UHGV virus genome: UHGV-0128348
Strand: one strand, 5' to 3'
DNA: 42,240 bases
From: a virus
The notes under the pieces are model-generated. The model ran no database searches, was not told the DNA's origin, and was given only the letters and a program-made list of their open reading frames with translations. Within the stretch, counting starts at the first letter, position 1; each line of letters starts with the position of its first letter. Shown here piece after piece: positions 12,421 to 41,048 of this stretch. The translations under genes and the position numbers were made by a program.

Positions 12421-12698
12421 CAGTGCCTCAGTGCATCAACCAGTCGCGCCACATTCCCCCTGAACCAGAGAACCGCGCCGCAGATAAGAATGTTAGCCAG
12501 CACCACCAGCCAGTGGGATGACTCGTACAGACCAAACAGGAAACGGAAAGGGATGCTGGCATAAACCAGCACCATGAGATAAGCCAGAACGGATATGCCA
12601 GGACGGTGTCTCGCACTACCTCGTTGGTAGAACATCAATGCCAGCACAATGACGGCGCAAATGACTGCATTAGCCAGCGCTGAAGGATCATTTACCAC
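12420..12698 (-). CDS. small membrane protein (holin/antiholin-like)
   Basis: 92-aa hydrophobic ORF between holin and endolysin with overlapping start/stop. Confidence 0.5.
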   Translation of the reverse strand: MVNDPSALANAVICAVIVLALMFYQRGSARHRPGISVLAYLMVLVYASIPFRFLFGLYESSHWLVVLANILICGAVLWFRGNVARLVDALRH

Positions 12699-13077
12699 TT
12701 GAACCTCCTCCCCGGAACCGGGTCAGCATATTGAACAAGCTATTTAGATCCTGGCTGTTGAGAAACGTCAGAACTTTGATGATAAGCGCTGATATTAATA
12801 CGGCTCCCAACGCATCAAGCGGACGGTCGCTGTAGCCAGTCCAGCTTGAAAGCTTGGAACCCACCAGACCGGCGCCCAGAACACCAACAATGAATGACGT
12901 CATAAAGTATGCCACCAGCTTACCGCGCGATATGTTAGCTGCCGTGGCCACGTAAAAAACCGCCCCGGCGAACGCACCAAATACCACGCCGTAATCTATT
13001 CCGGTAGCCAGACCGAACATGCTAGCCCCCATCAGGCCGCCGGCCGCAACTGAAGTACCAGAGACAGGATCGGACAT
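12688..13077 (-). CDS. holin
   Basis: 129-aa ORF with about three predicted TM segments and charged C-terminus; first gene of lysis cassette. Confidence 0.55.
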   Translation of the reverse strand: MSDPVSGTSVAAGGLMGASMFGLATGIDYGVVFGAFAGAVFYVATAANISRGKLVAYFMTSFIVGVLGAGLVGSKLSSWTGYSDRPLDALGAVLISALIIKVLTFLNSQDLNSLFNMLTRFRGGGSSGK

Positions 13078-13957: not shown

Positions 13958-13961
13958 GCCC

Positions 13962-13986
13962 AAAGAAAAAGCCCACCGAAGTGGGC
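13962..13986 (-). terminator. rho-independent terminator (minus strand), convergent with previous
   Basis: Hairpin GCCCACTTCGGTGGGC followed on the minus strand by TTTTTCTTT. Confidence 0.5.
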
Positions 13987-14363
13987 CTTACAGCTATCAT
14001 CATTTTTTATTAGGTGTGGTGCCGGGTGCCTCCCGGTGAGCATGCCCCAACAGACATCACTCGCGTGGTATTCACAGGGCTTTCGCTCTATTAGTTGGAC
14101 GCCCCTCCGCATAGGGGGATTCACCACACGGATAATTTAGGATGTAGTCATGGGCGGCGTCAATAACTGACACTCTGTCAAAGGCACCATTACGATGCCT
14201 TTTGCACAGTGCTAATCACTGGCTCTAATAAGGGGCCAGAGCAAAGCGATTACCCCGGCTACCAGCACGCCATCAGCCAGGATTGACATCATTTTGCTGG
14301 TGAAGTCGATAGCAACCACCAGAAACAAAAGCACCCCAGCTGCGGCCCAGCGAAGTTTACCGA

Positions 14364-14920: not shown

Positions 14921-14948
14921 ATGAAAAAGGCCCGCGAATGCGAGCCCT
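14921..14948 (-). terminator. terminator downstream of the two-gene AT-rich cassette
   Basis: Hairpin GGGCTCGCATTCGCGGGCC followed on the minus strand by TTTTTCAT. Confidence 0.45.
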
Positions 14949-15012
14949 AACAGCATGAAAATAATATGAATAAAAACCAGAACAAAGCAGATCTACTAAA
15001 CCATGTTGTAAT

Positions 15013-16302
15013 TTACAACTCTCGGTAAGCTGGTTGCAAAGCTTCACACCATTGTCTTAAAGTCGAAGCTCTTCGTTTCTTAGTTTTATCGCTAAGCGAT
15101 AAGCACATATCAAACAAAAAAGGCTCCGCCGTTGTGGGATCTAGCTCTGAAAGATTTTTTGCCTGGCTCCATTGTATCCAAGCCCAACCACAATGACTGG
15201 CCTCAAAACCACGAGCCGCAATTCTTAATCTCTTTTCATGATCAGATTCAGCTAATTGTTGTCCCATTGCAGAGATTGAACCATTTTCATTAAGTAAACC
15301 TAGTATTTTACCTGCGTGTATATAGTACAGTATATGGCGAGTATCCAACCCTGTACTAATTAGATCGAGATATATCCCCTTCCATTTTAACTCTACAACT
15401 TTAAAAACTTGATCAATTAAATTTGCTTGGGGCACCTGATAACCGCCAACAACCTGGGCAGACATCTTAGCCAAAGCTGTTGAGTAAAACTCAGCATCCG
15501 TTTTTCGAACCGTTAATACAATCTCATCTGTATAGTTATTTTTCAATTCAAAACTTGAACTTGTATTAACAACAGAGTCAAATAAAGCCGAAAGCATTTG
15601 AACATCAATCTTATTATTTTTAATAAAACTAACTATATCACCCTTAAGACGAATCAGATCATTTAGCTCTTTTAATAACGGCTCTACTGTCTGCATTTTC
15701 TCTGCCTGAAAAGAAAGCACAAAAGATCCAGGGCGACCCGCCACTGGTCGCATCAAGTCCTTTTCATCAAAAGAGTTAATTATAGATGAATATAAGTTAT
15801 TGAAACATTCGAATAATTTAGAAACACCACTTAGTACTAATGGGTCCGTAGATGACTTAGTTTTCTCCACATGTATTTCATGCGTTGAAAACTCAATTGC
15901 CTTGCCTATTTTACCATTAGCTAAAACAGGCAGTACAGAGCTTATAAACAATCCACTTTGTGGCAAAGTCATGTTGTTAGATACTTCAGACGAATCTAAA
16001 GCCAATGCTACAACACGCTCATCCTCATAAAAAATATCTAACTGATAGTATTTCTTTTGTTCTTGGTGCATTAGAACGCTACGAATATCTATTCTTTTTC
16101 TTTCCAAAGATTCTAAGCGTTCAGCAGATATAGGAATGATGATCCACTTTTCGAAGTCATCAAAGTCCCCTAACCAATAAACAACAAAGAGACTATTTAT
16201 CTCATTAGTCACTGAGAAAAATTTTGGACCTTCGAAAAACTCATAGACATTTTCGTATTTTAGTTCACCAAACACGCTGTCTTTAAGGAAGATGTTACTC
16301 AT
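15013..16302 (-). CDS. hypothetical protein, 429 aa, second gene of AT-rich two-gene cassette
   Basis: Long ORF with low GC; 4-nt overlap with upstream gene; no Walker A or other motif I recognise. Confidence 0.65.
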   Translation of the reverse strand: MSNIFLKDSVFGELKYENVYEFFEGPKFFSVTNEINSLFVVYWLGDFDDFEKWIIIPISAERLESLERKRIDIRSVLMHQEQKKYYQLDIFYEDERVVALALDSSEVSNNMTLPQSGLFISSVLPVLANGKIGKAIEFSTHEIHVEKTKSSTDPLVLSGVSKLFECFNNLYSSIINSFDEKDLMRPVAGRPGSFVLSFQAEKMQTVEPLLKELNDLIRLKGDIVSFIKNNKIDVQMLSALFDSVVNTSSSFELKNNYTDEIVLTVRKTDAEFYSTALAKMSAQVVGGYQVPQANLIDQVFKVVELKWKGIYLDLISTGLDTRHILYYIHAGKILGLLNENGSISAMGQQLAESDHEKRLRIAARGFEASHCGWAWIQWSQAKNLSELDPTTAEPFLFDMCLSLSDKTKKRRASTLRQWCEALQPAYREL

Positions 16303-16745
16303 TTATCCAACCTCCTTATACAAACGAATTTGGCATGAACCTGAGATTCGTTGTAAAGCCATATTGTGTAGTGAGTTGAATCAGGAGCTCCAGTTTTTAG
16401 AATAACACCGTCATTAGCTGCAAACTCACCCTGAGCAACAAATCGCTCTCCAATACCATCAGGAAACTTATTAAAGGCATTAATAATTGAATTTTCATCA
16501 GTATAAACTGATACGCCATAACAACATTTTAGCTTATGCCCTTTAAATTTTTTTAATCGTTTAGGATTTTCATCTTTCATATTCAAAAAGCACTGATCCC
16601 CTGGAGGATTTGCCTTTGTAAGACGAAAGAATACACCTGAAGCATCTTGCGCTTCCTTAGGTGGAGTGCCCGCAGGGAAGTCCGCGGGAAACGTTAACGA
16701 TTTTTTATTTTTTGTCGTTTGCTGTGAGATTTGAGTCATGTCCAT
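16299..16745 (-). CDS. hypothetical protein, 148 aa, first gene of AT-rich two-gene cassette
   Basis: ORF preceded by about 300 bp of very AT-rich sequence; no signal peptide; no recognisable domain. Confidence 0.6.
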   Translation of the reverse strand: MDMTQISQQTTKNKKSLTFPADFPAGTPPKEAQDASGVFFRLTKANPPGDQCFLNMKDENPKRLKKFKGHKLKCCYGVSVYTDENSIINAFNKFPDGIGERFVAQGEFAANDGVILKTGAPDSTHYTIWLYNESQVHAKFVCIRRLDK

Positions 16746-17058
16746 AATCCAAGACGATTAACAGAAAAACTGCCAATCACTTTGGTAAATCAGGACAATC
16801 CGTTGGCATTAGATGCAATATAGCAACAAGTAAACACTTCATAAATGCCATTTGGTTATATAAAGAATGACTTAACAACTCCATTTGTTATAAATGCTAT
16901 ATATTGATAGTTGAGCATATTTAGGCACTAAATATGTCCAATTACTGTTAATTGGCTATGTATATATTGAACCTATTCCCCGAGCTCCACATAAGTTCCG
17001 TTTCGTGGAGCCGATACCGACGGTTTTGCACCGGAAGAATCTTCGCGGGAGTATGTAG

Positions 17059-17131
17059 TGCTGGTTGACGGAACTGAACCGCCTACATCCTGCTTACAAG
17101 GCAGGCGCTCTCCCAACTGAGCTAACCCAGC
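17059..17131 (-). tRNA. tRNA-like gene, anticodon UGU (Thr), with non-canonical features
   Basis: Minus-strand cloverleaf: acceptor GCTGGGT, D-arm GCTCAGTTGGGAGAGC, anticodon stem CCTGC/GCAGG with loop CTTGTAA, T-arm GGCGG-TTCAGTT-CCGTC; G6-A67 mismatch; G at position 58; no encoded CCA. Confidence 0.5.
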
Positions 17132-18171
17132 AAATTACGCATTTCCATGACCGTTTGATCAAATCGCTCGGTTTCCAGTTCAACACCGATTCCACTCCGC
17201 CCGAGCAGAGCAGCTTGCTTTAGTGTGGAACCCGAACCAGCAAAGAAATCAGCTACGACATCCCCTGGCCAACTGCTTGCAGTAATGATCTGCTGAAGCA
17301 TATCGGCAGGTTTTTCGCATGGGTGCTTACCTGGATAAAACTGAACCGGCTTATGTGTCCAGACGTCGGTATATGGCACCGTGACCGACACGCTAAATGG
17401 GCGCCGTAACCGGTAATACTCCTGCTGAAGTTCAGAATACTTCCGGTTAAGTGATTGCCAGGTAGCGACAAGCTGGTGGTGAGGTTTTCCCAGTTCGTTG
17501 CGTGAGTGCTTATCCATGGCGATTTTTTGAAACAAAGCCTGCAACTTCAAATAATCGGCTTCATTCGGCAGTTGCCACTGGCTAAGGCCAAACCAGTGGG
17601 AAACCATATTTTTTTTACCCGTGGCTTCTGCAATCTGGGCCGACGTCACGCCAAGAGATTCCCGGGCATCCCGGAAGTAAGAAATTAAAGGCGTCATGAC
17701 GTGTTGCTTTAACTCATTACACTTTGCGGCATATCCATCGTCTTTGGGCCTGTATGGCCCCTGATAATGGTCGGCAAAAATGATACGCTCAGTTGCGGGG
17801 AAATAAGCGCGTAAGCTCTCCTTATTGCAGCCGTTCCATCGCCCTGATGGCTTAGCCCAGATGATATGGTTGAGCAAGTTAAACCGCTCTCTCACCAACA
17901 GCTCAATATCCGCTGCCAGGCGTTGCCCACAGAAGAGATACATGCTGCCGGCAGGTTTTAACACTCGCCAGAACTGTGCCAGACAGCTATCCAGCCAACG
18001 TAAATAGTCCTCGTCCCCCTTCCATTGGTTATCCCAGCCGTTTGGCTTCACCTTAAAATAAGGCGGATCGGTAACAATAAGATCAATGGAGTTATCGGGT
18101 ATCGATGGGAGGTATTGCAGGCAATCAGCATTGATTAATTCAATACTGGATATTTTTACAGTATTTTTCAT
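17122..18171 (-). CDS. DNA N6-adenine methyltransferase (DPPY motif, Dam-like phage methylase)
   Basis: 349-aa ORF with N-terminal ...LIVTDPPYF... and C-terminal ...FFAGSGSTL... AdoMet motif; last 10 nt overlap the tRNA-like gene. Confidence 0.8.
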   Translation of the reverse strand: MKNTVKISSIELINADCLQYLPSIPDNSIDLIVTDPPYFKVKPNGWDNQWKGDEDYLRWLDSCLAQFWRVLKPAGSMYLFCGQRLAADIELLVRERFNLLNHIIWAKPSGRWNGCNKESLRAYFPATERIIFADHYQGPYRPKDDGYAAKCNELKQHVMTPLISYFRDARESLGVTSAQIAEATGKKNMVSHWFGLSQWQLPNEADYLKLQALFQKIAMDKHSRNELGKPHHQLVATWQSLNRKYSELQQEYYRLRRPFSVSVTVPYTDVWTHKPVQFYPGKHPCEKPADMLQQIITASSWPGDVVADFFAGSGSTLKQAALLGRSGIGVELETERFDQTVMEMRNLLG

Positions 18172-18611: not shown

Positions 18612-18640
18612 CCATAAAAAAACCCGCTCGCTGGCGGGTT
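18612..18640 (-). terminator. late terminator (tR'-like) downstream of Q
   Basis: Strong hairpin AACCCGCCAGCGAGCGGGTT followed on the minus strand by T7. Confidence 0.6.
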
Positions 18641-18722
18641 AATCAACGTTGAACATACAAAGCCCATCGTTATAGATAAAATTACACAAAAGCGGCAACT
18701 TTGCAAGTAACGTGTCGCTAAA
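18641..18722 (-). promoter_or_regulatory. putative late promoter (pR'-like) with Q-utilisation region
   Basis: Minus-strand TTGCAA -N16- TAATTT between Q stop and the terminator; assigned by lambdoid analogy. Confidence 0.4.
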
Positions 18723-19553
18723 TTATGCGATATTTATCAAATCAGAAACCTTTGTCACACATTTAAGTTGTGAGTCGGTATAACTCTCTTCCTCAAAGCA
18801 TTTTGTAACCAGACTTTCATAGAAAGGTTTCCAGCTGTATCGCCAGGTTCGTTCTGGCAGACCAGGCAGCTCAGAGAGCATACCCCTGTAAGCATTTGAA
18901 GACTTAGGACGACTATAACCGCGGCCTTCACAACGTTTACATACTTTGTAGACAGGCACTCCCTGCATCTCTGACTCTTTACGGTCCAGGGTTTTTCCCG
19001 TACCGCCACACTGGCATCGCTTGCTGATTTTCCCGGTGCCGCCGCATTTGAAGCAGAGAACATGGTCAACCTCTTCCACCTGACGTTTTACTTCAAAATC
19101 CGAAGGTGACTGCCCGAGGTCTTTTGCCCATTGCGGTAATCTCATTTTGTAGTGGCTTTTTTCCACCATTGAGGTTTTTTTTATGAAGCCTGAACCAGAA
19201 CACTTCCTGCAATCTACGCTGTCAGCTGCAGACGAGGCATAGTCGTTATAAGCGAACCGAGCTATTATCAGCATACACAGCGGGAACTTCTTCCCTGCTG
19301 CTTTTCTTATCGATCGAGGCGCTTTTGATTTTGCATATTCAGCCAACCAACTGACGGATGCCTTTCTGTCGTGTTCGCTGATTCCAGCTTTACCCAAAAA
19401 CATTGACAGGCCTATTCCTGCCTCTGCCTGTGTCATCCCCAGAGCGGCCATTACATCTGTCACAGTGAGTTGCTCGCTGGCGGTTGCACGACCGCTATCG
19501 GAAATATGCATTCCTTTGGGCGCGAAAAATTTGGGAATTGATTCAATATTCAT
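18723..19553 (-). CDS. late antitermination protein Q-like
   Basis: ORF 18723..19571 begins with GTG; likely ATG start at 19553; paired CxxC motifs (CRKCSGSG, CFKCGGTG, CQCGGTG, CKRCEGRG); upstream of late terminator. Confidence 0.65.
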   Translation of the reverse strand: MNIESIPKFFAPKGMHISDSGRATASEQLTVTDVMAALGMTQAEAGIGLSMFLGKAGISEHDRKASVSWLAEYAKSKAPRSIRKAAGKKFPLCMLIIARFAYNDYASSAADSVDCRKCSGSGFIKKTSMVEKSHYKMRLPQWAKDLGQSPSDFEVKRQVEEVDHVLCFKCGGTGKISKRCQCGGTGKTLDRKESEMQGVPVYKVCKRCEGRGYSRPKSSNAYRGMLSELPGLPERTWRYSWKPFYESLVTKCFEEESYTDSQLKCVTKVSDLINIA

Positions 19554-19571
19554 GCTCAGTACTCCATACAC

Positions 19572-22484: not shown

Positions 22485-22957
22485 TCAGCCTCCAGCACTA
22501 TCTTCAACTCAAACGGAACATCTCCTCCGCAATAGCAGAGCGGGCCAAGGTCAGACATAAGGCTCCACAGGGTCATTGACGTATAGCCATTTTCGTCTGT
22601 TACCGGGGGCGAAAAGTCCCCGAAGATCCTCGGGTGCTGGATTCGATTCTGCTCGTGTTGTTTTTCCAAATGTCTGAGGGAGACTTCATTAAGTTTCACT
22701 TTTACGATGCTGTTGAGATTGACCGATATTTCTCTGGCCAACAGCGAAGGGGTGATACTGATACCGCGAGAAACCCCGCGGGTAATCTTGATGGCCCCTT
22801 TTCTCTCCAGCGCCTTGAGGTGCGTTGCTGCTGCATTGGGGGACCGGCACCCCAGCATTCCGGTCAGTTCGTAAGTTGTAGGCGGAAAACCATGTTTACG
22901 CTGATATTCGATCAGGAGGTCCAGGACCTCCTGCTGCCTTAAGGTCAAGGAAGTCAT
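22481..22957 (-). CDS. LexA-like winged-helix DNA-binding protein with uncharacterised C-terminal domain
   Basis: ORF 22481..22984; likely ATG 22957 overlapping the C5-MTase stop (ATGA); ...LTLRQQEVLDLLIEYQRKHGFPPTTYELTGMLGCRSPNAAATHLKALERKGAIKI... resembles LexA N-terminal DBD. Confidence 0.55.
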   Translation of the reverse strand: MTSLTLRQQEVLDLLIEYQRKHGFPPTTYELTGMLGCRSPNAAATHLKALERKGAIKITRGVSRGISITPSLLAREISVNLNSIVKVKLNEVSLRHLEKQHEQNRIQHPRIFGDFSPPVTDENGYTSMTLWSLMSDLGPLCYCGGDVPFELKIVLEAE

Positions 22958-24936
22958 GCTGCCTGCTCCTCTCTGTTCACGCACATTTCGGGTAAGTTGG
23001 CGCGTACCAGCGCTTCGGCGAACGGCGGCGGGACGGCATTGCCACAGCGCGCGACCTGCTTATCTTTCGCGTATTTCACGCCGCGGTAATCCTGGTCAAT
23101 GATGTACCACTCCGGAAAGCCCTGCGCCCGGTAGAGCTCGTGCGGCTGCAGCATGCGCATGCCGATATCAACGATTCGGTAAGTCACCCCGCCAATTTCC
23201 ACCAGTCCGGTGCTATCCTTCCCGCAGTATTCCTGCAGGAACGCCAGCACCTGCTGCGCGCGCTCGTCGTCGTAGTCCTCGACCGCCAGGGTCGTTTTAA
23301 CCTCCCCCACGTGCTGGCCGCCAGCAGTGATAGTCGGCATCGGCTCGTCAGTAGTCTGGCCGTCACGGCAAGTACCGCGCAGTTTAACCAGATGAGAAGC
23401 GACTAATGCGTGGTGATCGACAGTCGTTACTGAATGCGCTGGCTCATCCAGCCCCACGCCGGCGCCCTGATAATTCCCACCGTAGTGTTTTGCCAGGAAC
23501 GCACCAACTACGGCATGTTTCCCACCACCAGCCACAACAGTTCCTAGCGGCTTATCCAGTCCTGGCACGCGAGGAGCCTGGCCGGGCCGTTCTCCGTATC
23601 CCATTTGAATGAGCGTCGGCACAACCAGCTGCGATTTACCGCCGCCGCCCGCGGTGATTGTTGCGCTTGGTTCATCGGCACGGTGTCCGACGCTGGCGCC
23701 AAACTGACGAGCGATGACCGGCGCAACAACACAAGCTCGTGACTCTTTCAGGATGGTGTGAGCGGGTTTATCGAGCGGGCGTGGTTTAGCCTGGTACTCG
23801 CTGCCGCCATTGCCAGCCAGGAACGGAGCCAGCTCTGCTTCAACAATACCCATAGCGTGACCATTCCCGCCCGGGCGTTTTGCGGTACCGGCCGTCACCG
23901 TCGGCAACGGATCGGTGACTTCCTGCCCGGTAGCTCCGGTTCGGAATTTTGTCAGATGAGGTACCGCAATTGCGTAGCCGTGGGTTTTCGTAATCGTCTG
24001 TAGCGGATCGTCCAGCGCCTGTCCCCGGAAACAGTCATATTTGCCACGTGTCGTTGTGTGATTGCACTTCACGATGAATGGCGAAGCACTTTCGATAACA
24101 AAGCGCTGAATGCCGCGGGCAATCCGTTTTAGCGTATTCTCTGCCAGTGACTTTTTGCGACCGAAGATGCTCGGCGCGGGGATTGACCAGTCTATGCATT
24201 CCGCAGCTGTACGCCACGGCTCAAGCTGGCCCGCCAGCACGGCGGCAGACTTCGGATCCCCGTGCGTGGCTTCCGGCCAGACTATCGGTTTCCCGTCCCG
24301 GCGCATCACCATGAAGAACCGCTTACGGATGGTCGGCGCGCCATAATCGCAGGCGCGCAGCTCGCGAAAATCGACGACATAACCCAGCCCGGCAATTAAG
24401 CGCTTGGCCTGCTCGCTATCCGGTGAAAACTCCAGAAACTCGCAACACTCCACCAGTGCAGGATGATCTGCTGGAATACCGGTGGTAAGCATCCCGACAA
24501 ATGCATTGAAAGTTTCACCGATGCGTGCCGGATCCGGTCGCATTTCTGCCGCGAGTAACGGACCCCACGTCTTAAACTCTTCGACGTTTTCCAGCATCAT
24601 GACTCGCGGGCCAACATCCAGCGCCCAACGAATGACGATCCATGCCAGCCCTCGAATATCTTTCTCTACTGGTTTAGCACCTTTCGCTTTAGAAAAGTGA
24701 CGACAGTCAGGCGAGAACCATGCCAGGCCGACAGGCTTACCACTGGTAGCGGCTAATGGGGATACATCAAACACACTTTCGCAATAGTGAAGCGTGTCGG
24801 GATGGTTAGTGCGGTGCATAGCAACGGCGTTAACATCGTGGTTAATCGCGATATCAACGCTACGCCCTATCGCCAGCTCAATACCTGTACTGGCGCCACC
24901 GCCACCAGCAAAATTATCGACAATAATCTCACGCAT
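22954..24936 (-). CDS. DNA (cytosine-5)-methyltransferase with long repeat-containing variable region
   Basis: 660-aa ORF; motif I FAGGGG, PC-type FSPDCRHFS, ENV (MLENVEEF), motif X RCGNAV; seven D(E/K)P..T(I/V)TAGG-like repeats between them. Confidence 0.8.
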   Translation of the reverse strand: MREIIVDNFAGGGGASTGIELAIGRSVDIAINHDVNAVAMHRTNHPDTLHYCESVFDVSPLAATSGKPVGLAWFSPDCRHFSKAKGAKPVEKDIRGLAWIVIRWALDVGPRVMMLENVEEFKTWGPLLAAEMRPDPARIGETFNAFVGMLTTGIPADHPALVECCEFLEFSPDSEQAKRLIAGLGYVVDFRELRACDYGAPTIRKRFFMVMRRDGKPIVWPEATHGDPKSAAVLAGQLEPWRTAAECIDWSIPAPSIFGRKKSLAENTLKRIARGIQRFVIESASPFIVKCNHTTTRGKYDCFRGQALDDPLQTITKTHGYAIAVPHLTKFRTGATGQEVTDPLPTVTAGTAKRPGGNGHAMGIVEAELAPFLAGNGGSEYQAKPRPLDKPAHTILKESRACVVAPVIARQFGASVGHRADEPSATITAGGGGKSQLVVPTLIQMGYGERPGQAPRVPGLDKPLGTVVAGGGKHAVVGAFLAKHYGGNYQGAGVGLDEPAHSVTTVDHHALVASHLVKLRGTCRDGQTTDEPMPTITAGGQHVGEVKTTLAVEDYDDERAQQVLAFLQEYCGKDSTGLVEIGGVTYRIVDIGMRMLQPHELYRAQGFPEWYIIDQDYRGVKYAKDKQVARCGNAVPPPFAEALVRANLPEMCVNREEQAA

Positions 24937-36473: not shown

Positions 36474-36680
36474 ATGCTGAGCCTCGATTGTGTTCCCATC
36501 TCAACTTATTGCAAAGAGACAGGCGAAACCCCTGATGCCATAAATAAGCGCATCCAGCGCGGCGTATGGCGTGAAGGGGTACAGGTGCTAAAGGTCGAAG
36601 GCGTTAAGGAAAGATGGATAGATCTTAGTGAGGTTGCAAAATGGGCTCGACAAAATCGCCTAAACTCCCGCGCGGCGTAA
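36474..36680 (+). CDS. xis: excisionase
   Basis: Small basic ORF directly upstream of and overlapping integrase; start at second ATG with GGAG RBS. Confidence 0.55.
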   Translation: MLSLDCVPISTYCKETGETPDAINKRIQRGVWREGVQVLKVEGVKERWIDLSEVAKWARQNRLNSRAA

Positions 36681-37831
36681 CGATCAGGAAACATAGTACT
36701 GGGGAAACTATCAATATTACCTTTACCTATAAGGGGGTGAAATGCCGGGAACCTTTATCAAACCTTGAAATTAATAGCAAAAACATTAAATACGCCGAGC
36801 GAACACTCGGCGAAATTCACAATAAAATTGAGCGGGGTACATTCAATTATGGTGAACACTTTCCCCGTTCGGCACGACTTAAAATATTTGGTAATTCTTC
36901 AACAGGAAAAACGGTAAAAAATTATCTCGATGAATATCTTGTAATTTGTGAAACGAGAAAATTATCTCCCTCAACAATCGGCGGATATAAGAAATGTTTA
37001 AATGCTCTGGCATCACTTCACGTTTTTCCTGCCAGCGAATTAACACCTGCTGCTTTAAAAACATGGATCCAGAGTCAGAAAACGACATTAAAGACGATTA
37101 GGAACCAACTTTCATTCCTACGCTCAGCACTGGATGAAGCTGTGACTGATGGTGTATTGCAGATTAACCCTGTTTCACTGGTGACAGCCTCGCGCTACCA
37201 GAGTAGTAAAACCGAGGATGAAAGTGATTATATTGTTGATCCGCTTTCGCCAGCCGAGGTTGAAGCGCTTTTGCATGCCGCAGGTAACAAGCAGTGGGAA
37301 AACATATTCCGCTTTGCAATTGAAACCGGGCTACGTAGTTCTGAACTCTGCGCCCTCCGTTGGCGCGATATCGACTTTATCGGCAAAACAGCGCATGTGC
37401 AAAATGCCAGCGTAGTGGGGGTAATTAAGGGCACGAAAACTAAAGCTGGAACACGTAAAGTTGAGTTAACCGAAGAAGCCTTGTATGCCCTGACTTCTCA
37501 GAAGCCTTTCACCTTTATGAAAGATGCAACGATCTTTGAGGATCCTAAGACAGAAAAACCATGGGCGGGTGCCGATGCGATAAGAAAGAAAGCCTGGGTG
37601 CCAACTTTACGTAAAGCTGGGATCAGGTACCGTAATCCATACCAGACCAGGCATACGTTCGCGACCCGACATATAAGTCGTGGCGCTAACCTGTTCTGGC
37701 TGGCATCACAGATGGGACATAAAGGGCCAGAAATGTTGTTCAGGCATTATGGACGCTATCTGAAGGAGTATGACGGCAACACTGAAAAACGACCCAAGCT
37801 GGTCAGCGGTGGAACCTCAAAGGAGCCGTAA
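36641..37831 (+). CDS. int: tyrosine integrase (lambda Int family)
   Basis: 396-aa ORF with C-terminal catalytic region ...RHTFATRHISRGANLFWLASQMGHKGPEMLFRHYGRY...; adjacent att core. Confidence 0.85.
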   Translation: MGSTKSPKLPRGVTIRKHSTGETINITFTYKGVKCREPLSNLEINSKNIKYAERTLGEIHNKIERGTFNYGEHFPRSARLKIFGNSSTGKTVKNYLDEYLVICETRKLSPSTIGGYKKCLNALASLHVFPASELTPAALKTWIQSQKTTLKTIRNQLSFLRSALDEAVTDGVLQINPVSLVTASRYQSSKTEDESDYIVDPLSPAEVEALLHAAGNKQWENIFRFAIETGLRSSELCALRWRDIDFIGKTAHVQNASVVGVIKGTKTKAGTRKVELTEEALYALTSQKPFTFMKDATIFEDPKTEKPWAGADAIRKKAWVPTLRKAGIRYRNPYQTRHTFATRHISRGANLFWLASQMGHKGPEMLFRHYGRYLKEYDGNTEKRPKLVSGGTSKEP

Positions 37832-37889
37832 AGGATCCGCAGCAAAACGCTAAATTTTTTTATCATTGTTTATCATGATGTTATTAAGT

Positions 37890-37925
37890 TTCGGGCGCGG
37901 GTTCAACTCCCGCCAGCTCCACCAA
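37890..37925 (+). other. tmRNA (ssrA) 3'-end fragment = prophage att core
   Basis: TTTCGGGCGCGGGTTCAACTCCCGCCAGCTCCACCA matches the enterobacterial ssrA 3' end as I recall it; upstream sequence is not ssrA. Confidence 0.7.
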
Positions 37926-37955
37926 ACATTCATTCATGATGCATCATGAACCTTA

Positions 37956-37993
37956 AAAAAGCCTGCAACTTCAACGAGTTGCAGGCTTTTTTG
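37956..37993 (+). terminator. rho-independent terminator (probable native ssrA terminator)
   Basis: Hairpin GCCTGCAACT-TCAACG-AGTTGCAGGC flanked by A6 and T6. Confidence 0.65.
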
Positions 37994-38090
37994 TTGCATG
38001 TGTGGTCATGATCTCTGTATGAATCTTGAGCATTATGTATCTTGTTTTGCACCGCGTTGCCTGAACGCTAAAAAAACAAGGTGCAAAAAC

Positions 38091-39338
38091 ATGCCTAAGG
38101 TATTGAAATCCCTAACCAATACCGAGATCGCTGCCGCCAAGCCGCAGAAGACCGAGTATATGCTGCGCGATGGCGACGGACTGGCGTTGTTGATTAAGCC
38201 ATCCGGCAGAAAGATCTGGTACTTCGAATACACTCCCCCGGCGCTGAAAAAACGGACCAAAATCAGCATTGGCCCCTATCCGGTAGTCACCCTCGCCATG
38301 GCGCGAGATTTCAGGTTGCAATACCGGCGTTTACTCGTGCAGGGCATCGACCCGCAGGCCCATCTGGAGCAGGTTGCAGAGGAGCAACGACTCCAGAATG
38401 AATGCACGCTGGAAAAAGTGGCAGAACAGTGGCTCAAAGAGAAAAAACGGACCAGCGATCTTAGCGAAGATCACGCCAAAGATGTCTGGCGCTCGCTGGA
38501 GATGCACGTCTTCCCTTCTCTGGGTAATACACCCGTTACCGAGATCCGTCCCAAAATGCTCAAGGAACACCTTACACCGCTGGAAGAACAGGGCATCCTC
38601 GAAACGCTGCGGCGGGTTATCTCACGACTCAATGAAATCTTCCGCTTCGCCATCTCCGAAGAGCTTATCGAGTTTAACCCAGCAGACAACCTGGTCGCCC
38701 GCTTTAAGAAACCGAAAAAGCAGAATATGCCCGCCCTTCACCCCAGCGAGCTGGGCAGGCTGATGCTGGCGCTATAGAACGCCTCTATCCGCAAGGAAAC
38801 CCGCTGCCTTATCGAATGGGAGCTACTGACCTGGGTTCGCCCCGGCGAAGCCGTCAGCGCCCGCTGGTGCGACATCGATATGAAAAAAGCGGAATGGCGC
38901 ATCCCCGATACTTTTATGAAGATGAACCGTTCGCACACGGTGCCGCTCAGCAAACAGGCGCTGCGCGTTCTTCAGGTTATGGAGCCCGTCAGTCGCCATC
39001 GCCCGTGGGTTTTCCCCAGTATCCGCAAACCACTGGAGCATATGCACCAGCAGACCGCGAACGCCGCGCTTATCCGCATGGGGTTCGGCGGCGAACTGGT
39101 CGCCCACGGCATGCGCAGCATCGCCAGGACCGCAGGAGCAGGTCATTTTCCCCGTGAAGTCCTGGAATCTGCGCTAGCACACCAGAAAGAAGACGAGATC
39201 GAAGCGGCCTACAACCGCAGCGACTATCTGGAACAAAGGCGACCGCTGATGCAGTGGTGGGGAAACTACGTTGATGCTGCCAGACGGCAGGCATTGCTCG
39301 GTGAAGAAGAACCGCTGCGGATCGTGGAAGGAGAATAA
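38091..39338 (+). pseudogene. P4-type (IntA-like) integrase interrupted by one in-frame TAG
   Basis: ORFs 37998..38777 and 38880..39338 share a frame; the frame is open across 38778..38879; only stop is TAG 38775..38777; N-terminus MPKVLKSLTNTEIAAAKP..., C-terminus ...YNRSDYLEQRRPLMQWW... Confidence 0.7.
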
Positions 39339-39339
39339 T

Positions 39340-39984
39340 GTGACCAGTCCCATTCGTCAGAATCTGTTTGAACGGGAATGCGATATGCCGCTGCTGGAAG
39401 CGCGGCATCTCGCCCTTCTGCTTCTCGGCCTTGATGCTTCCCAACCTGCAAACGCCCTACCGGAAGAACATCAGGAGAATTACCGTATCCTGCACGACGC
39501 CATCAGCCGCACCATCAAAGCCACAGGCATGGTCAGCGCCCCTGCAAACAAACGTATGTTCTATGCCGATGAGATGTTCGCGCTGGCCTGGCGGCTTATT
39601 GATGACGAACTCACGCCGCCAGAAATTAAGGCCCGCAGCCTGAAGGCGGTGATGAAACTGTCGCGTAACGGTCGTGGTCGCAAGTGGCTGAAGACGCTCG
39701 GCGACGACGCGCTACCGGATCTCACTGCTTCCGCACAACCTTCCCAGCGTGGAATGTATAAGCGCGACAAAGCGCGGGAGAATACTGCCCGACTCTGCTG
39801 GCTACTGGTTCAGCTACTGGTTGAGGAGACTGACGGACGGTATGGGACGTATGATAAACCAGCTTCGGATCGGATACTTCGAAAGCTGAAAATGCTGGCG
39901 CAGGAGCGGGAATTGCCGTCGGATGGGCTTGGACGGGGGACGTTTTATGAGGTGTTGAAGATGGGGCGGGTGAAGAAAGTGTAG
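39340..39984 (+). CDS. hypothetical protein
   Basis: ORF 39271..39984; likely GTG start 39340 with GGAAGGAG RBS just after integrase stop. Confidence 0.45.
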   Translation: MTSPIRQNLFERECDMPLLEARHLALLLLGLDASQPANALPEEHQENYRILHDAISRTIKATGMVSAPANKRMFYADEMFALAWRLIDDELTPPEIKARSLKAVMKLSRNGRGRKWLKTLGDDALPDLTASAQPSQRGMYKRDKARENTARLCWLLVQLLVEETDGRYGTYDKPASDRILRKLKMLAQERELPSDGLGRGTFYEVLKMGRVKKV

Positions 39985-40256
39985 GTAGTTGCTGCATAGT
40001 GTCGGGATGTAACGAACCGATTAAACTCTGAAACCGCCTGATGTATAGTTGGCTTGGAGCCAATAGCAGATATGAATGAATCGATTGCAACAGAATCTCC
40101 GTCTGATCAAGACGTCTTCAAATTCTTGAGGTTATAGTGTGTGGTGCTCAATGAATCGTTGCGCAGGAAATTTGACCTGCGGACCATTTCAGCTGCAGCA
40201 AAAACAGGTAGCGTATCAAATACAGATGAAATCAGGCATTATGCAATGGAGACAAG

Positions 40257-41048
40257 ATGATAGATGAGAGCGCAAAAACGATAGCCGAAAAGCTCGCTGT
40301 TCCGGTTTATGAAGATGCCCTGAGCCCTTTTGCTAAAGAATTATCAAAGGGGTTAGTCTCTATTGCCAGAATGGTAAATTCGGGAATATTCCTAGTTGAA
40401 GACAGTGTGCATGCGGTGACAAGCGTCTTACGGATGACAGCTGAGAATCTGGCATTATTACCACCCAAGCAAATTTCATTCGATCGGCCAAGGGTTGCTC
40501 TTCAGGCTCTAAATGAGGCCAAATTTGCAATAAATGAAGATGAAATACAGCGCCTTTTTTCAAATCTAATATCGGCAAGCCTAGACAAGAAAACTTCGGG
40601 GATTGCTCATCCAGCGTACATCGAAATAATCAAACAGCTCCAGCCGGATGAAGCCAGGATCCTTCGGTTTATGTTTAATAAAGAAAAGAATAGAAAAGGT
40701 CATGCACCCACAATTGATATTGTCCAACAAGATTCAAAGGATAGTAACTTCAGAACCACATCAACTACACCGGAAGTAAACCTAATTTGTGAAGATGCTG
40801 GTTGCGATATCCCCGAAAACTCATTTATGTATTTCTCCAACTTAAAACGATTGGGCCTGCTAACTACAACATCAGGAACTTCTTTCCCAAAGGAAGAGCA
40901 TGAAAGAATTTTCTCATCAGAGAAGGTAAAAGAAATATGCAGTGTAAATTCGCATCTAGATAGAGTTTCTTATAAAAGCGGGCAATATAGTTTTACAGGT
41001 TTTGGTCAAGGCTTTGTAGATTCGTGTATCGGCAGACATAGTATTTAA
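40257..41048 (+). CDS. AT-rich hypothetical protein, possibly Abi-alpha-like
   Basis: 263-aa low-GC ORF beside an integrase; N-terminal ...AEKLAVPVYEDALSPFAKELSKG... recalls Abi_alpha/DUF4393 (memory only). Confidence 0.4.
   Translation: MIDESAKTIAEKLAVPVYEDALSPFAKELSKGLVSIARMVNSGIFLVEDSVHAVTSVLRMTAENLALLPPKQISFDRPRVALQALNEAKFAINEDEIQRLFSNLISASLDKKTSGIAHPAYIEIIKQLQPDEARILRFMFNKEKNRKGHAPTIDIVQQDSKDSNFRTTSTTPEVNLICEDAGCDIPENSFMYFSNLKRLGLLTTTSGTSFPKEEHERIFSSEKVKEICSVNSHLDRVSYKSGQYSFTGFGQGFVDSCIGRHSI

Follow-up and report, generated by a model that had tools for sequence, protein, structure and literature searches.

Background

The closest described relatives of the gene studied here, a transfer RNA (tRNA) gene for threonine in the virus genome UHGV-0128348, are known from work on a nuclease that attacks tRNAs. 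P2 Old is lethal because it cleaves the tRNA-Thr(UGU) of the host at a paired CNG motif within the anticodon stem; cells are rescued from P2 Old by tRNA-Thr(UGU) genes of phages, among them the one of the lambdoid phage 21, and resistance requires an altered CNG motif and a shortened stem together (PMC12445682, 2025). Phage 21 is reported with two tRNA genes (PMC9119081). Our gene is a tRNA-Thr(UGU) gene at positions 17059..17131, on the minus strand, of UHGV-0128348, whose whole stretch of 42,240 nucleotides we call the window. It belongs to a widespread family found in the leader of the late transcript of lambdoid prophages: a late-leader phage tRNA is a known kind of gene, and this family of tRNA-Thr(UGU) has not been specifically described before. 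Our reading, to which we give a probability of about 0.6, is that this phage tRNA is dispensable and that its copy in the window is hypomorphic or decaying.

For sequence comparisons, the tRNA-Thr of phage HK446 serves as a stand-in for tRNA-Thr21, the tRNA-Thr of phage 21. HK446 has a tRNA-Asn and a tRNA-Thr(UGU) between its annotated pR'/tR' and the holin gene, and some members of our family are also preceded by a tRNA-Asn. The HK446/21 type and the family have in common the UGU anticodon, a slot in the late leader that depends on the antiterminator Q, an identity of about 78%, and the acceptor stem, which in HK446 and phage 21 is identical to the family consensus GCUGGUU/AACCAGC. They differ in the anticodon stem: the HK446/21 type has U28-A42 and G27·A43, which are P2 Old-resistance features, whereas the family has CCUGC/GCAGG. 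The copy in the window departs further from the HK446/21 type by G6·A67, A48, G58 and the absence of an encoded CCA.

The tRNA-Thr of phage-plasmids (Escherichia phage Cyrano, the P1-like D6 and about 650 E. coli plasmids) is 85-86% identical and, in Cyrano, shares the CCUGC/GCAGG anticodon stem within an Asn-Thr(-Ser) array, but its acceptor stem is GCCGGUU, its context is a plasmid-prophage, and its canonical T-loop and CCA are in place. The tRNA-Thr6 type of virulent phages, exemplified by Klebsiella jumbo phage vB_Kpn_AM_K6, also has the UGU anticodon and is a substitute for host tRNA-ThrU; it differs by CUC (G30C/C40G) and A27·A43, the second solution to P2 Old to have been described and one that the family lacks, and by residing in the large tRNA arrays of lytic phages. 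The 933W-type Stx phages, as Plunkett and colleagues are said to have described in 1999, carry the tRNAs ileZ-argN-argO between Q/pR' and the stx and lysis genes. The comparison with Stx-type phages that accompanied the original prediction holds insofar as this order of the slot (Q, pR', tRNAs, cargo, lysis) matches, with a late-leader slot followed by what is generally known in 933W as a ‘moron’; the differences are that the 933W type has Ile-CAU and Arg tRNAs, a toxin cargo rather than a defence pair, and no methylase overlap. Finally, some tRNA genes of T4 are generally known to lack an encoded CCA, as ours does. To mature, the transcripts of such genes would have to be trimmed by an RNase BN/Z-type activity and completed by the CCA-adding enzyme of the host. 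Functional T4 genes are natively in this state, whereas the window owes it to a C75U change within a family that normally encodes CCA.

Results and discussion

A conserved tRNA and its damaged copy

ARAGORN predicts a single tRNA in the window, a tRNA-Thr(tgt) at 17058-17131 on the minus strand, and the Rfam model RF00005 matches 17059-17131 on that strand at model positions 1-71 of 71, with a score of 58.0 bits (E = 4.1e-10, whole window), the gathering score being 29 bits. The original prediction, which had described a near-canonical cloverleaf with anticodon UGU on the minus strand and had proposed ARAGORN as a check, is thus sustained by both programs. The RNA is 73 nucleotides long and reads GCUGGGU UA GCUC AGUUGGGA GAGC G CCUGC CUUGUAA GCAGG AUGUA GGCGG UUCAGUU CCGUC AACCAGC A. 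According to the sequence and the Infernal alignment, its D stem has four base pairs, and its anticodon and T stems have five each; the anticodon loop has seven nucleotides with U33 and a purine at position 37, and G18G19, U8 and A14 are present. The recognition bases of E. coli threonyl-tRNA synthetase (ThrRS), namely G1-C72, C2-G71, G35 and U36, are all there, and the RNA might, judging by these bases, be a substrate for charging. Since the cloverleaf is also the predicted minimum-free-energy fold, with nucleotides 1-5 paired to 68-72 (five acceptor pairs), and since the gene has many homologues, among which compensatory changes occur, it is not a chance resemblance.

Other positions are less regular. 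At 6:67, G6 faces A67, a purine-purine mismatch that the Infernal alignment flags ‘v’ for non-standard, so that the acceptor stem falls short of the seven pairs of the family consensus. The T-loop, U54 U55 C56 A57 G58 U59 U60, or UUCAGUU, has G58, whereas the T54:A58 reverse-Hoogsteen pair calls for U54-U55-C56-R57-A58. A73 is followed, at 17056..17058, by CUA and not CCA. The original prediction had listed these three irregularities, and all of them are confirmed; it had missed a fourth, which is A48 opposite G15 where the family has C48. The Levitt pair 15:48, expected to be G:C or A:U, is here G15·A48.

The family was collected with an exact scan for the anticodon and T arms, which yielded core-pattern contigs in 85 viral, 30 metagenome and 2 species-representative genome sequences. 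A scan that needs an intact anticodon arm is biased against decayed copies, and two flank-anchored scans complement it; the scan of genome contigs covers one genome per species, so that its 2 family members are too few for an allele frequency. In all, 119 family loci were recovered, from enterobacterial lambdoid prophages, and related tRNA-Thr genes are also revealed by more distant BLAST matches, to 712 E. coli genomes (for the most part in phage-plasmids) and to named phages. As a consensus, the family has GCTGGTTTAGCTCAGCAGGTAGAGCGCCTGCCTTGTAAGCAGGATGTCGGCGGTTCGATTCCGTCAACCAGCA then CCA, with a perfect 7-bp acceptor stem, C48, and the T-loop TTCGATT that includes A58; CCA is encoded in 108 of the 119 loci, and G5-C68 alternates with A5-U68. 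Over 15 diverse tRNA-Thr(UGU) sequences, 98.4% of the cells are paired and 11 of the 21 pairs exhibit compensatory changes; the sole unpaired cell in the acceptor stem is 6:67 of the window. The window tRNA is 92% identical to those of its relatives L004 and L042 and shares its acceptor, anticodon and T arms with the family, of which it is a homologous member. While the methylase flanks of these genes differ at 137 to 193 of 900 positions (15-21%), the tRNA of the family differs at 1 to 3 of 76: such conservation indicates a family under strong purifying selection, and clearly functional.

Family members are not always annotated: ARAGORN finds a late-leader tRNA that is missing from the record of Klebsiella phage 5 LV-2017 (KY271399; our locus L088, 4503-4578), and it likewise detects unannotated ones in the HK446 record (NC_019714; L089, 2426-2581).

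Against the family, the allele in the window stands out as rare and derived. Its nearest relatives by flank, L004 and L042, differ from it at 19 of 1000 positions (1.9%) over the upstream methylase, but at 6 of the 76 positions of the tRNA and its CCA, the changes being U6G, U20G, C48A, G57A, A58G and C75U (Fisher p = 0.006). The substitution rate of the tRNA is about 4 times that of its flank, in a gene that otherwise evolves about 10 times more slowly than the flank. Of the 119 loci, the window and L050 are the only two with G6, A48 and G58; U6, C48 and A58 are otherwise invariant (C48 and A58 are each found in 117 of the 119). L050 is a differently mosaic phage whose module formed by methylase, tRNA and PD-T4-10 genes is 99.5% identical to that of the window, and the presence of the same allele there means that it is not a sequencing error. 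A pattern specific to the allele has no match among the metagenome contigs, versus 30 canonical copies there. At the 3' end, the window has CTACATACTCCCGCG in place of the CCACATACTCCCGCG of its close relative L058: the ‘missing CCA’ is thus a C-to-T point mutation. Rfam scores canonical copies at 72-76 bits, and the window falls 17.7 bits below its nearest relatives. Among 63 other phage tRNAs taken as a sample, all 63 have A58, none has G6·A67, and one has a G·A at 15:48.

The original prediction had left three options open, a functional phage tRNA, a degenerate copy, and a relic of an older integration target. We favour the second, because the family is functional and selected while this allele, found in the window and L050 only, has changes at the otherwise invariant U6, C48 and A58 and a mutated CCA. 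The broken 6:67, G15:C48 and T54:A58 pairs, together with the CCA mutation, would most likely leave the gene with poor function or none, and the allele may represent an early-to-middle stage in the pseudogenisation of a dispensable accessory gene.

A number of observations weigh against this conclusion, and many of them bear on the alternative that the gene is fully functional: transcription with the late operon would be followed by excision by RNase P and 3' nucleases, CCA addition by the host enzyme and charging by ThrRS, and the product would read ACA codons. With 58 bits against a threshold of 29, the allele still folds as a cloverleaf; it has no indels, and it keeps U33, the anticodon UGU, A37, G18G19, U54U55C56 and the ThrRS bases. 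Its identity in L050 implies that it was transmitted unchanged in two different phages, though the divergence is too small to reveal constraint. The CCA was lost independently in 11 of the 119 family loci, including otherwise canonical copies, and single acceptor mismatches elsewhere in the stem are found in 6 of the 63 sampled phage tRNAs. An encoded CCA is dispensable in enterobacteria, and the CCA-less tRNAs of T4 are matured by RNase BN and the CCA-adding enzyme. Part of the excess of substitutions could also reflect a recombination breakpoint inside the tRNA, whose 3' half resembles that of L064. We nevertheless think full function rather unlikely: three of the changes fall at positions invariant in the other 117 family loci, one of them being the A58 that the phage sample never lacks; the score has dropped far below that of the nearest relatives; the burst of substitutions occurs in a gene that normally evolves slowly; and sister loci display further decay and truncation.

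Decay and exchange in the late leader

The sister loci are those of the PD-T4-10-like gene pair A and B that follows the tRNA in the window. A search that reached close relatives of this pair, at 85% identity or more, found six in IMG/VR, and all six have a tRNA about 385 nucleotides upstream of gene A. Their tRNAs can be arranged by increasing damage: those of L130 and L133 are canonical (the canonical L004 scores 75.7 Rfam bits); L131 has A73U and 72.3 bits; L129 has C25U, G57A and CUA, and 71.7 bits; the window/L128 copy has its six changes and 58.0 bits; and L132 has about ten, including U6G, G19A, G30A, a change of anticodon from UGU to UAU, mismatches in the T stem and acceptor, and CAA, for 36.2 bits. 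Outside these six loci, a scan anchored on the methylase finds in L139 a tRNA with T54C and C68A, at 66.3 bits. The copy in the window thus appears to be part-way along a visible path to loss.

The other common junction of the family, which ends in GAGCCCTGAACCAGATT, is followed by an intact tRNA-Thr at 69 of 159 sites and by decayed copies at 2, while the remaining 88 sites have other tRNAs (Asn, Gly, CAU-type, Arg) or unrelated DNA. At loci L158-L251, the anchor GAGYYCTGARCCAGATT, with which the pR'/tR' region ends, precedes a Thr-UGU, Asn-GUU, Gly-UCC, CAU-anticodon or Arg-UCU tRNA, or no tRNA at all. To judge from these neighbours, the late-leader slot seems to behave as a tRNA exchange site. 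The counts at this junction, combined with the decay of the sister loci, lead us to regard the tRNA as a frequently gained and lost accessory gene.

A stop codon inside the tRNA

Directly upstream lies an N6/N4 DNA methyltransferase gene of 349 amino acids, at 17122..18171 on the minus strand (Pfam PF01555, 4.5e-40; PADLOC MTase_II, 1e-143). Its open reading frame (ORF) ends with M R N L L G and the stop codon TAG, at 17124-17122, which is nucleotides 8-10 of the tRNA; the last three codons and the stop cover nucleotides -2 to 10, an overlap of 10 nucleotides. The methylase end does therefore run into the acceptor stem, as the original prediction had it, but the overlap is no peculiarity of this window. 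The junction AATTT followed by GCTGG(T/G)TTAG is found in 26 tRNA-anchored loci, a few of which have only a remnant at the methylase end, and in 39 contigs anchored on the end of the methylase; AATTT followed by GCTGGTTTAG, which encodes N L L V and the stop, is found in all loci with the methylase, though the methylase DNA differs by about 20%. By this comparison the overlap is an old, conserved junction. Since U8-A9-G10 is near-universal in tRNAs, an ORF that enters a tRNA in the frame of the methylase ends there by default, and the overlap may be a by-product of the old junction, in which U8-A9-G10 doubles as the methylase stop codon and would persist, through selection on the methylase, even at loci that have lost the remainder of the tRNA.

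The 39 methylase-anchored contigs illustrate this: about 17 have an intact tRNA (17-19 of 39); three point-mutated copies are those of L050, with the window allele, L139 and L151/L132; in 12 the tRNA is cut off after nucleotides 7-32 with GCTGG(T/G)TTAG still kept; and 8 are of the type of Klebsiella phage Kp4866-6, which keeps GCTGG alone. The tRNA is truncated or replaced in about 20 of the 39, so that the part that serves the methylase is retained while the remainder is often lost. At loci L134-L157, breakpoints of cargo replacement fall inside the tRNA at nucleotides 5, 7, 10, 13-19 and 32, and the first 10 nucleotides, which encode the methylase stop, are usually preserved.

Such a junction invites the conjecture of a processing switch acting in cis. 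RNase P, by cutting at the 5' end of the tRNA-like structure, would strip the methylase message of its stop and the three codons before it, each late transcript yielding either a tRNA or a complete methylase, the non-stop messenger being left to transfer-messenger RNA; U6G and the mutations of the elbow, acceptor and CCA in the window would then have been selected to blunt RNase P in favour of the methylase. Bacterial RNase P uses the stack of acceptor and T arm and the 3' CCA, and the four structural mutations of the window all hit features of this kind; the conjecture also has on its side that methylases about 20% apart have this conserved junction in common, and that U6G recurs. This substitution, at position 17126 of the window, turns GCTGGTTTAG into GCTGGGTTAG and changes the last residue of the methylase from V to G. 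It is found in three methylase lineages, those of the window, L132 (tRNA at 2701-2773) and L150, the nearest relative of each having U6, and all three carriers have a decayed or truncated tRNA. We consider a switch quite improbable: a stop at U8-A9-G10 is what any in-frame ORF would meet by default, no precedent was found in the literature, and an intact tRNA-Thr is present behind the methylase in about 44-49% of cases (about 17-19 of 39), versus 43% (69 of 159) at the junction without overlap. These similar fractions give no sign of a conflict specific to the methylase, and we rejected on the same counts the idea of a methylase-specific loss of the tRNA. The recurrence of U6G may come either from a mutational hotspot, the extension of a GG run, exposed by relaxed constraint, or from its spread by recombination.

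U6G and the burst of substitutions in a normally frozen gene could also be read as adaptation, the changes in elbow and acceptor allowing the tRNA to evade a nuclease or modification enzyme of the host or of a rival phage. Evolution of nuclease-resistant variants is known for phage tRNAs (PMC12445682, PMC11464382). The known escape changes, however, are in the anticodon arm, which is unchanged in the window; those of the window destroy universally conserved tertiary contacts rather than tune a recognition surface; the copy in L132, which shares U6G, is clearly dead, at 36 bits and with a changed anticodon; and the allele is very rare. An escape variant thus seems to us very improbable, more so than the switch.

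The phage has, besides the methylase of the junction, a second DNA methyltransferase, of the C-5 cytosine type and 660 amino acids long, at 22954-24936 (minus strand) in the early region; it thus has two methylases.

The late operon and its cargo

The window is a lambda-like prophage of Klebsiella whose late genes lie on the minus strand; the closest relative sequenced, Kp4866-6, is 93-97% identical to it along most of its length. Read along the minus strand, a DUF968 protein gene is followed by the Q-type late antiterminator (18723..19571; Pfam PF03589, 6.5e-45; PHROG 127), and by a putative late promoter region pR' (18621..18722, TTGCAA-16-TAATTT), recognized by comparison with the annotated pR' of HK446, as is the lambda-type sigma-pause element TAACGATGGG at 18663-18672. 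A terminator scan places a tR'-like terminator at 18621-18640, directly downstream of Q; then come a small winged-helix protein, the methylase and the tRNA. Beyond the tRNA lie two AT-rich ORFs, a hairpin, a TerB-like protein, an STnc100 element and the holin gene (12688-13077). This order, from Q through holin, makes the tRNA part of the late transcription unit that depends on Q: on one and the same strand, the minus strand, Q/pR'/tR' precede it and the lysis cassette follows; a consensus scan of the minus strand near 17131-17300 found no promoter of its own.

The relatives present four upstream contexts, in which the tRNA stands about 200-240 nucleotides after Q, 4 nucleotides after a terminator hairpin with its T-run, after a tRNA-Asn, or after the methylase; downstream, they have the holin, endolysin and spanin genes directly, or variable cargo. 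The family order would thus be Q, pR', tR', an optional winged helix-turn-helix gene and methylase, the tRNA, an optional cargo, and the lysis genes, and its position suggests that the tRNA is made mainly in lytic growth, by processing of the late transcript.

The tRNA is followed by a conserved 3' trailer of about 95 nucleotides (16960..17055, minus strand), delimited by comparing the flanks of L058, L067, L074, L004, L040 and L054 and predicted to fold into hairpins such as GCUCCAC...GUGGAGC; it is common to relatives that carry different cargo. A permissive Rfam search of 16700-17200 returned noise only, with no Rfam family and no tRNA relic, and we rejected on this ground a hidden second tRNA in the trailer.

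The cargo of the window consists of two ORFs, both on the minus strand and overlapping by 4 nucleotides, with a GC content of 37-38% against about 51% for the phage (15013-16745). The first, at 16299..16745 (38% GC), encodes a PD-T4-10_A-like protein, a putative antitoxin (PADLOC PDLC04023, 1.7e-11); the second, at 15013..16302, a PD-T4-10_B-like protein, a putative toxin with DUF6575 (Pfam, 3.7e-38), whose match to PDLC04024 is weak (1.5e-5) and confined to the N-terminal 85 or so amino acids. These roles are taken from the E. coli prototype: PD-T4-10 is an abortive-infection system of toxin-antitoxin type that protects E. coli from T-even phages, B being toxic and A neutralising (PMC9519451). 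The 2.2-kb module is closed by a terminator-like hairpin at 14927..14948 (minus strand), in a block of 59 nucleotides common to Kp4866-6. The tRNA may accordingly be seen as marking the upstream edge of a hypervariable cargo slot, occupied here by a PD-T4-10-like toxin-antitoxin abortive-infection pair. Most ORFs after family tRNAs are lysis genes, and the idea of a ‘defence hotspot’ 3' of the tRNA was dropped, as four other recurrent cargo ORFs have no PADLOC match and Pfam gave only a solute-binding protein.

Kp4866-6 has no tRNA: with respect to it, positions 14947-17126 of the window, which hold the tRNA and both ORFs, are a 2.2-kb replacement of about 230 bp, and its methylase is ten codons longer, ending in NLLEHRPPQPNPLP before the stop. 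The original prediction's relic of an integration target, or a tRNA imported with the PD-T4-10 defence cassette, would agree with the break of similarity within 5 nucleotides of the 5' end of the tRNA, with the fact that the tRNA and the two defence genes form one 2.2-kb indel, and with the tRNA present upstream in all six close PD-T4-10 relatives. It is, of the explanations considered, the one we find hardest to credit. More than 110 loci that lack PD-T4-10, with many other kinds of cargo, have the full-length tRNA in the same slot; the 3' trailer is common to loci without PD-T4-10; the module has no integrase; no direct repeats were found flanking it; and no second copy of the tRNA 3' end, at up to 3 mismatches, is present in the window. 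A full-length gene some 20 kb away from the prophage integrase and its attachment (att) site, with no duplicated fragment in the window, led us to reject the relic, the third option of the original prediction, which is left unsupported.

Three neighbouring features may be mentioned. An Rfam match to the small RNA STnc100 (13958-14152, minus strand, 96 bits, E = 1e-19) lies just upstream of the holin gene and in the same place in L042, L050, L129, L131 and L132; in these phages it resembles a structured and conserved leader to the lysis cassette. In Kp4866-6, a small HNH/AP2-like endonuclease ORF (L001, 3190-3525), which has no counterpart in the window, sits between the shared terminator block and the TerB-like gene, another module swap in the late-leader cargo region. 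At the other end, the prophage integrase is at 36641-37831, in a plus-strand region spanning 36641-41048, and similarity to Kp4866-6 stops at about 37931; beyond it are a truncated second integrase without catalytic domain (37998-38777) and an Abi_alpha protein (40257-41048), probably the remnant of another island at the same attachment site.

What the family may do

The job of the family would be to supply a tRNA that reads ACA, supplementing the single, rare host tRNA-ThrU. The family tRNA may indeed add to the capacity for decoding ACA, a codon that accounts for 17% of the Thr codons in late genes and 33% in the cargo; taken without a host codon baseline, these figures are suggestive only as an argument for codon supply.

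By analogy with tRNA-Thr21 of phage 21, the family may also back up tRNA-ThrU when it is destroyed by nucleases like P2 Old. The anticodon stems argue against such a counter-defence role, since the family has neither of the P2 Old-resistance features. Its CCUGC/GCAGG keeps C28-U29-G30/C40-A41-G42, identical to the host tRNA-ThrU, whose sequence was verified against 5,420 E. coli genomes. The window tRNA has the UGU anticodon of the rescuing tRNAs, but its CNG motif is unaltered and its stem is not shortened: C27-G43 is paired, where resistance goes with an unpaired 27:43, in a 5-bp stem with 4 G-C pairs. The intact motif and the full stem made us set aside the idea that the family is an Old-resistant rescue tRNA. 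It may counter a nuclease that targets tRNA-Thr other than P2 Old.

Conclusions

The significance of the finding is modest, and the finding itself is largely an ordinary one. For the annotation of the window, we recommend tRNA-Thr(UGU), probably impaired or a pseudogene in progress. Several phage records in GenBank leave their late-leader tRNAs unannotated. In a wider perspective, the late-leader slot of lambdoid prophages in Klebsiella and other enterobacteria is a site of birth and death for accessory tRNAs, mostly Thr(UGU) but also of Asn, Arg, Gly and CAU types; behind them lies exchangeable cargo, which can include a defence system. A large family of tRNA-Thr genes in temperate phages, without the known determinants of resistance to P2 Old, is a useful test set for how such tRNAs work.

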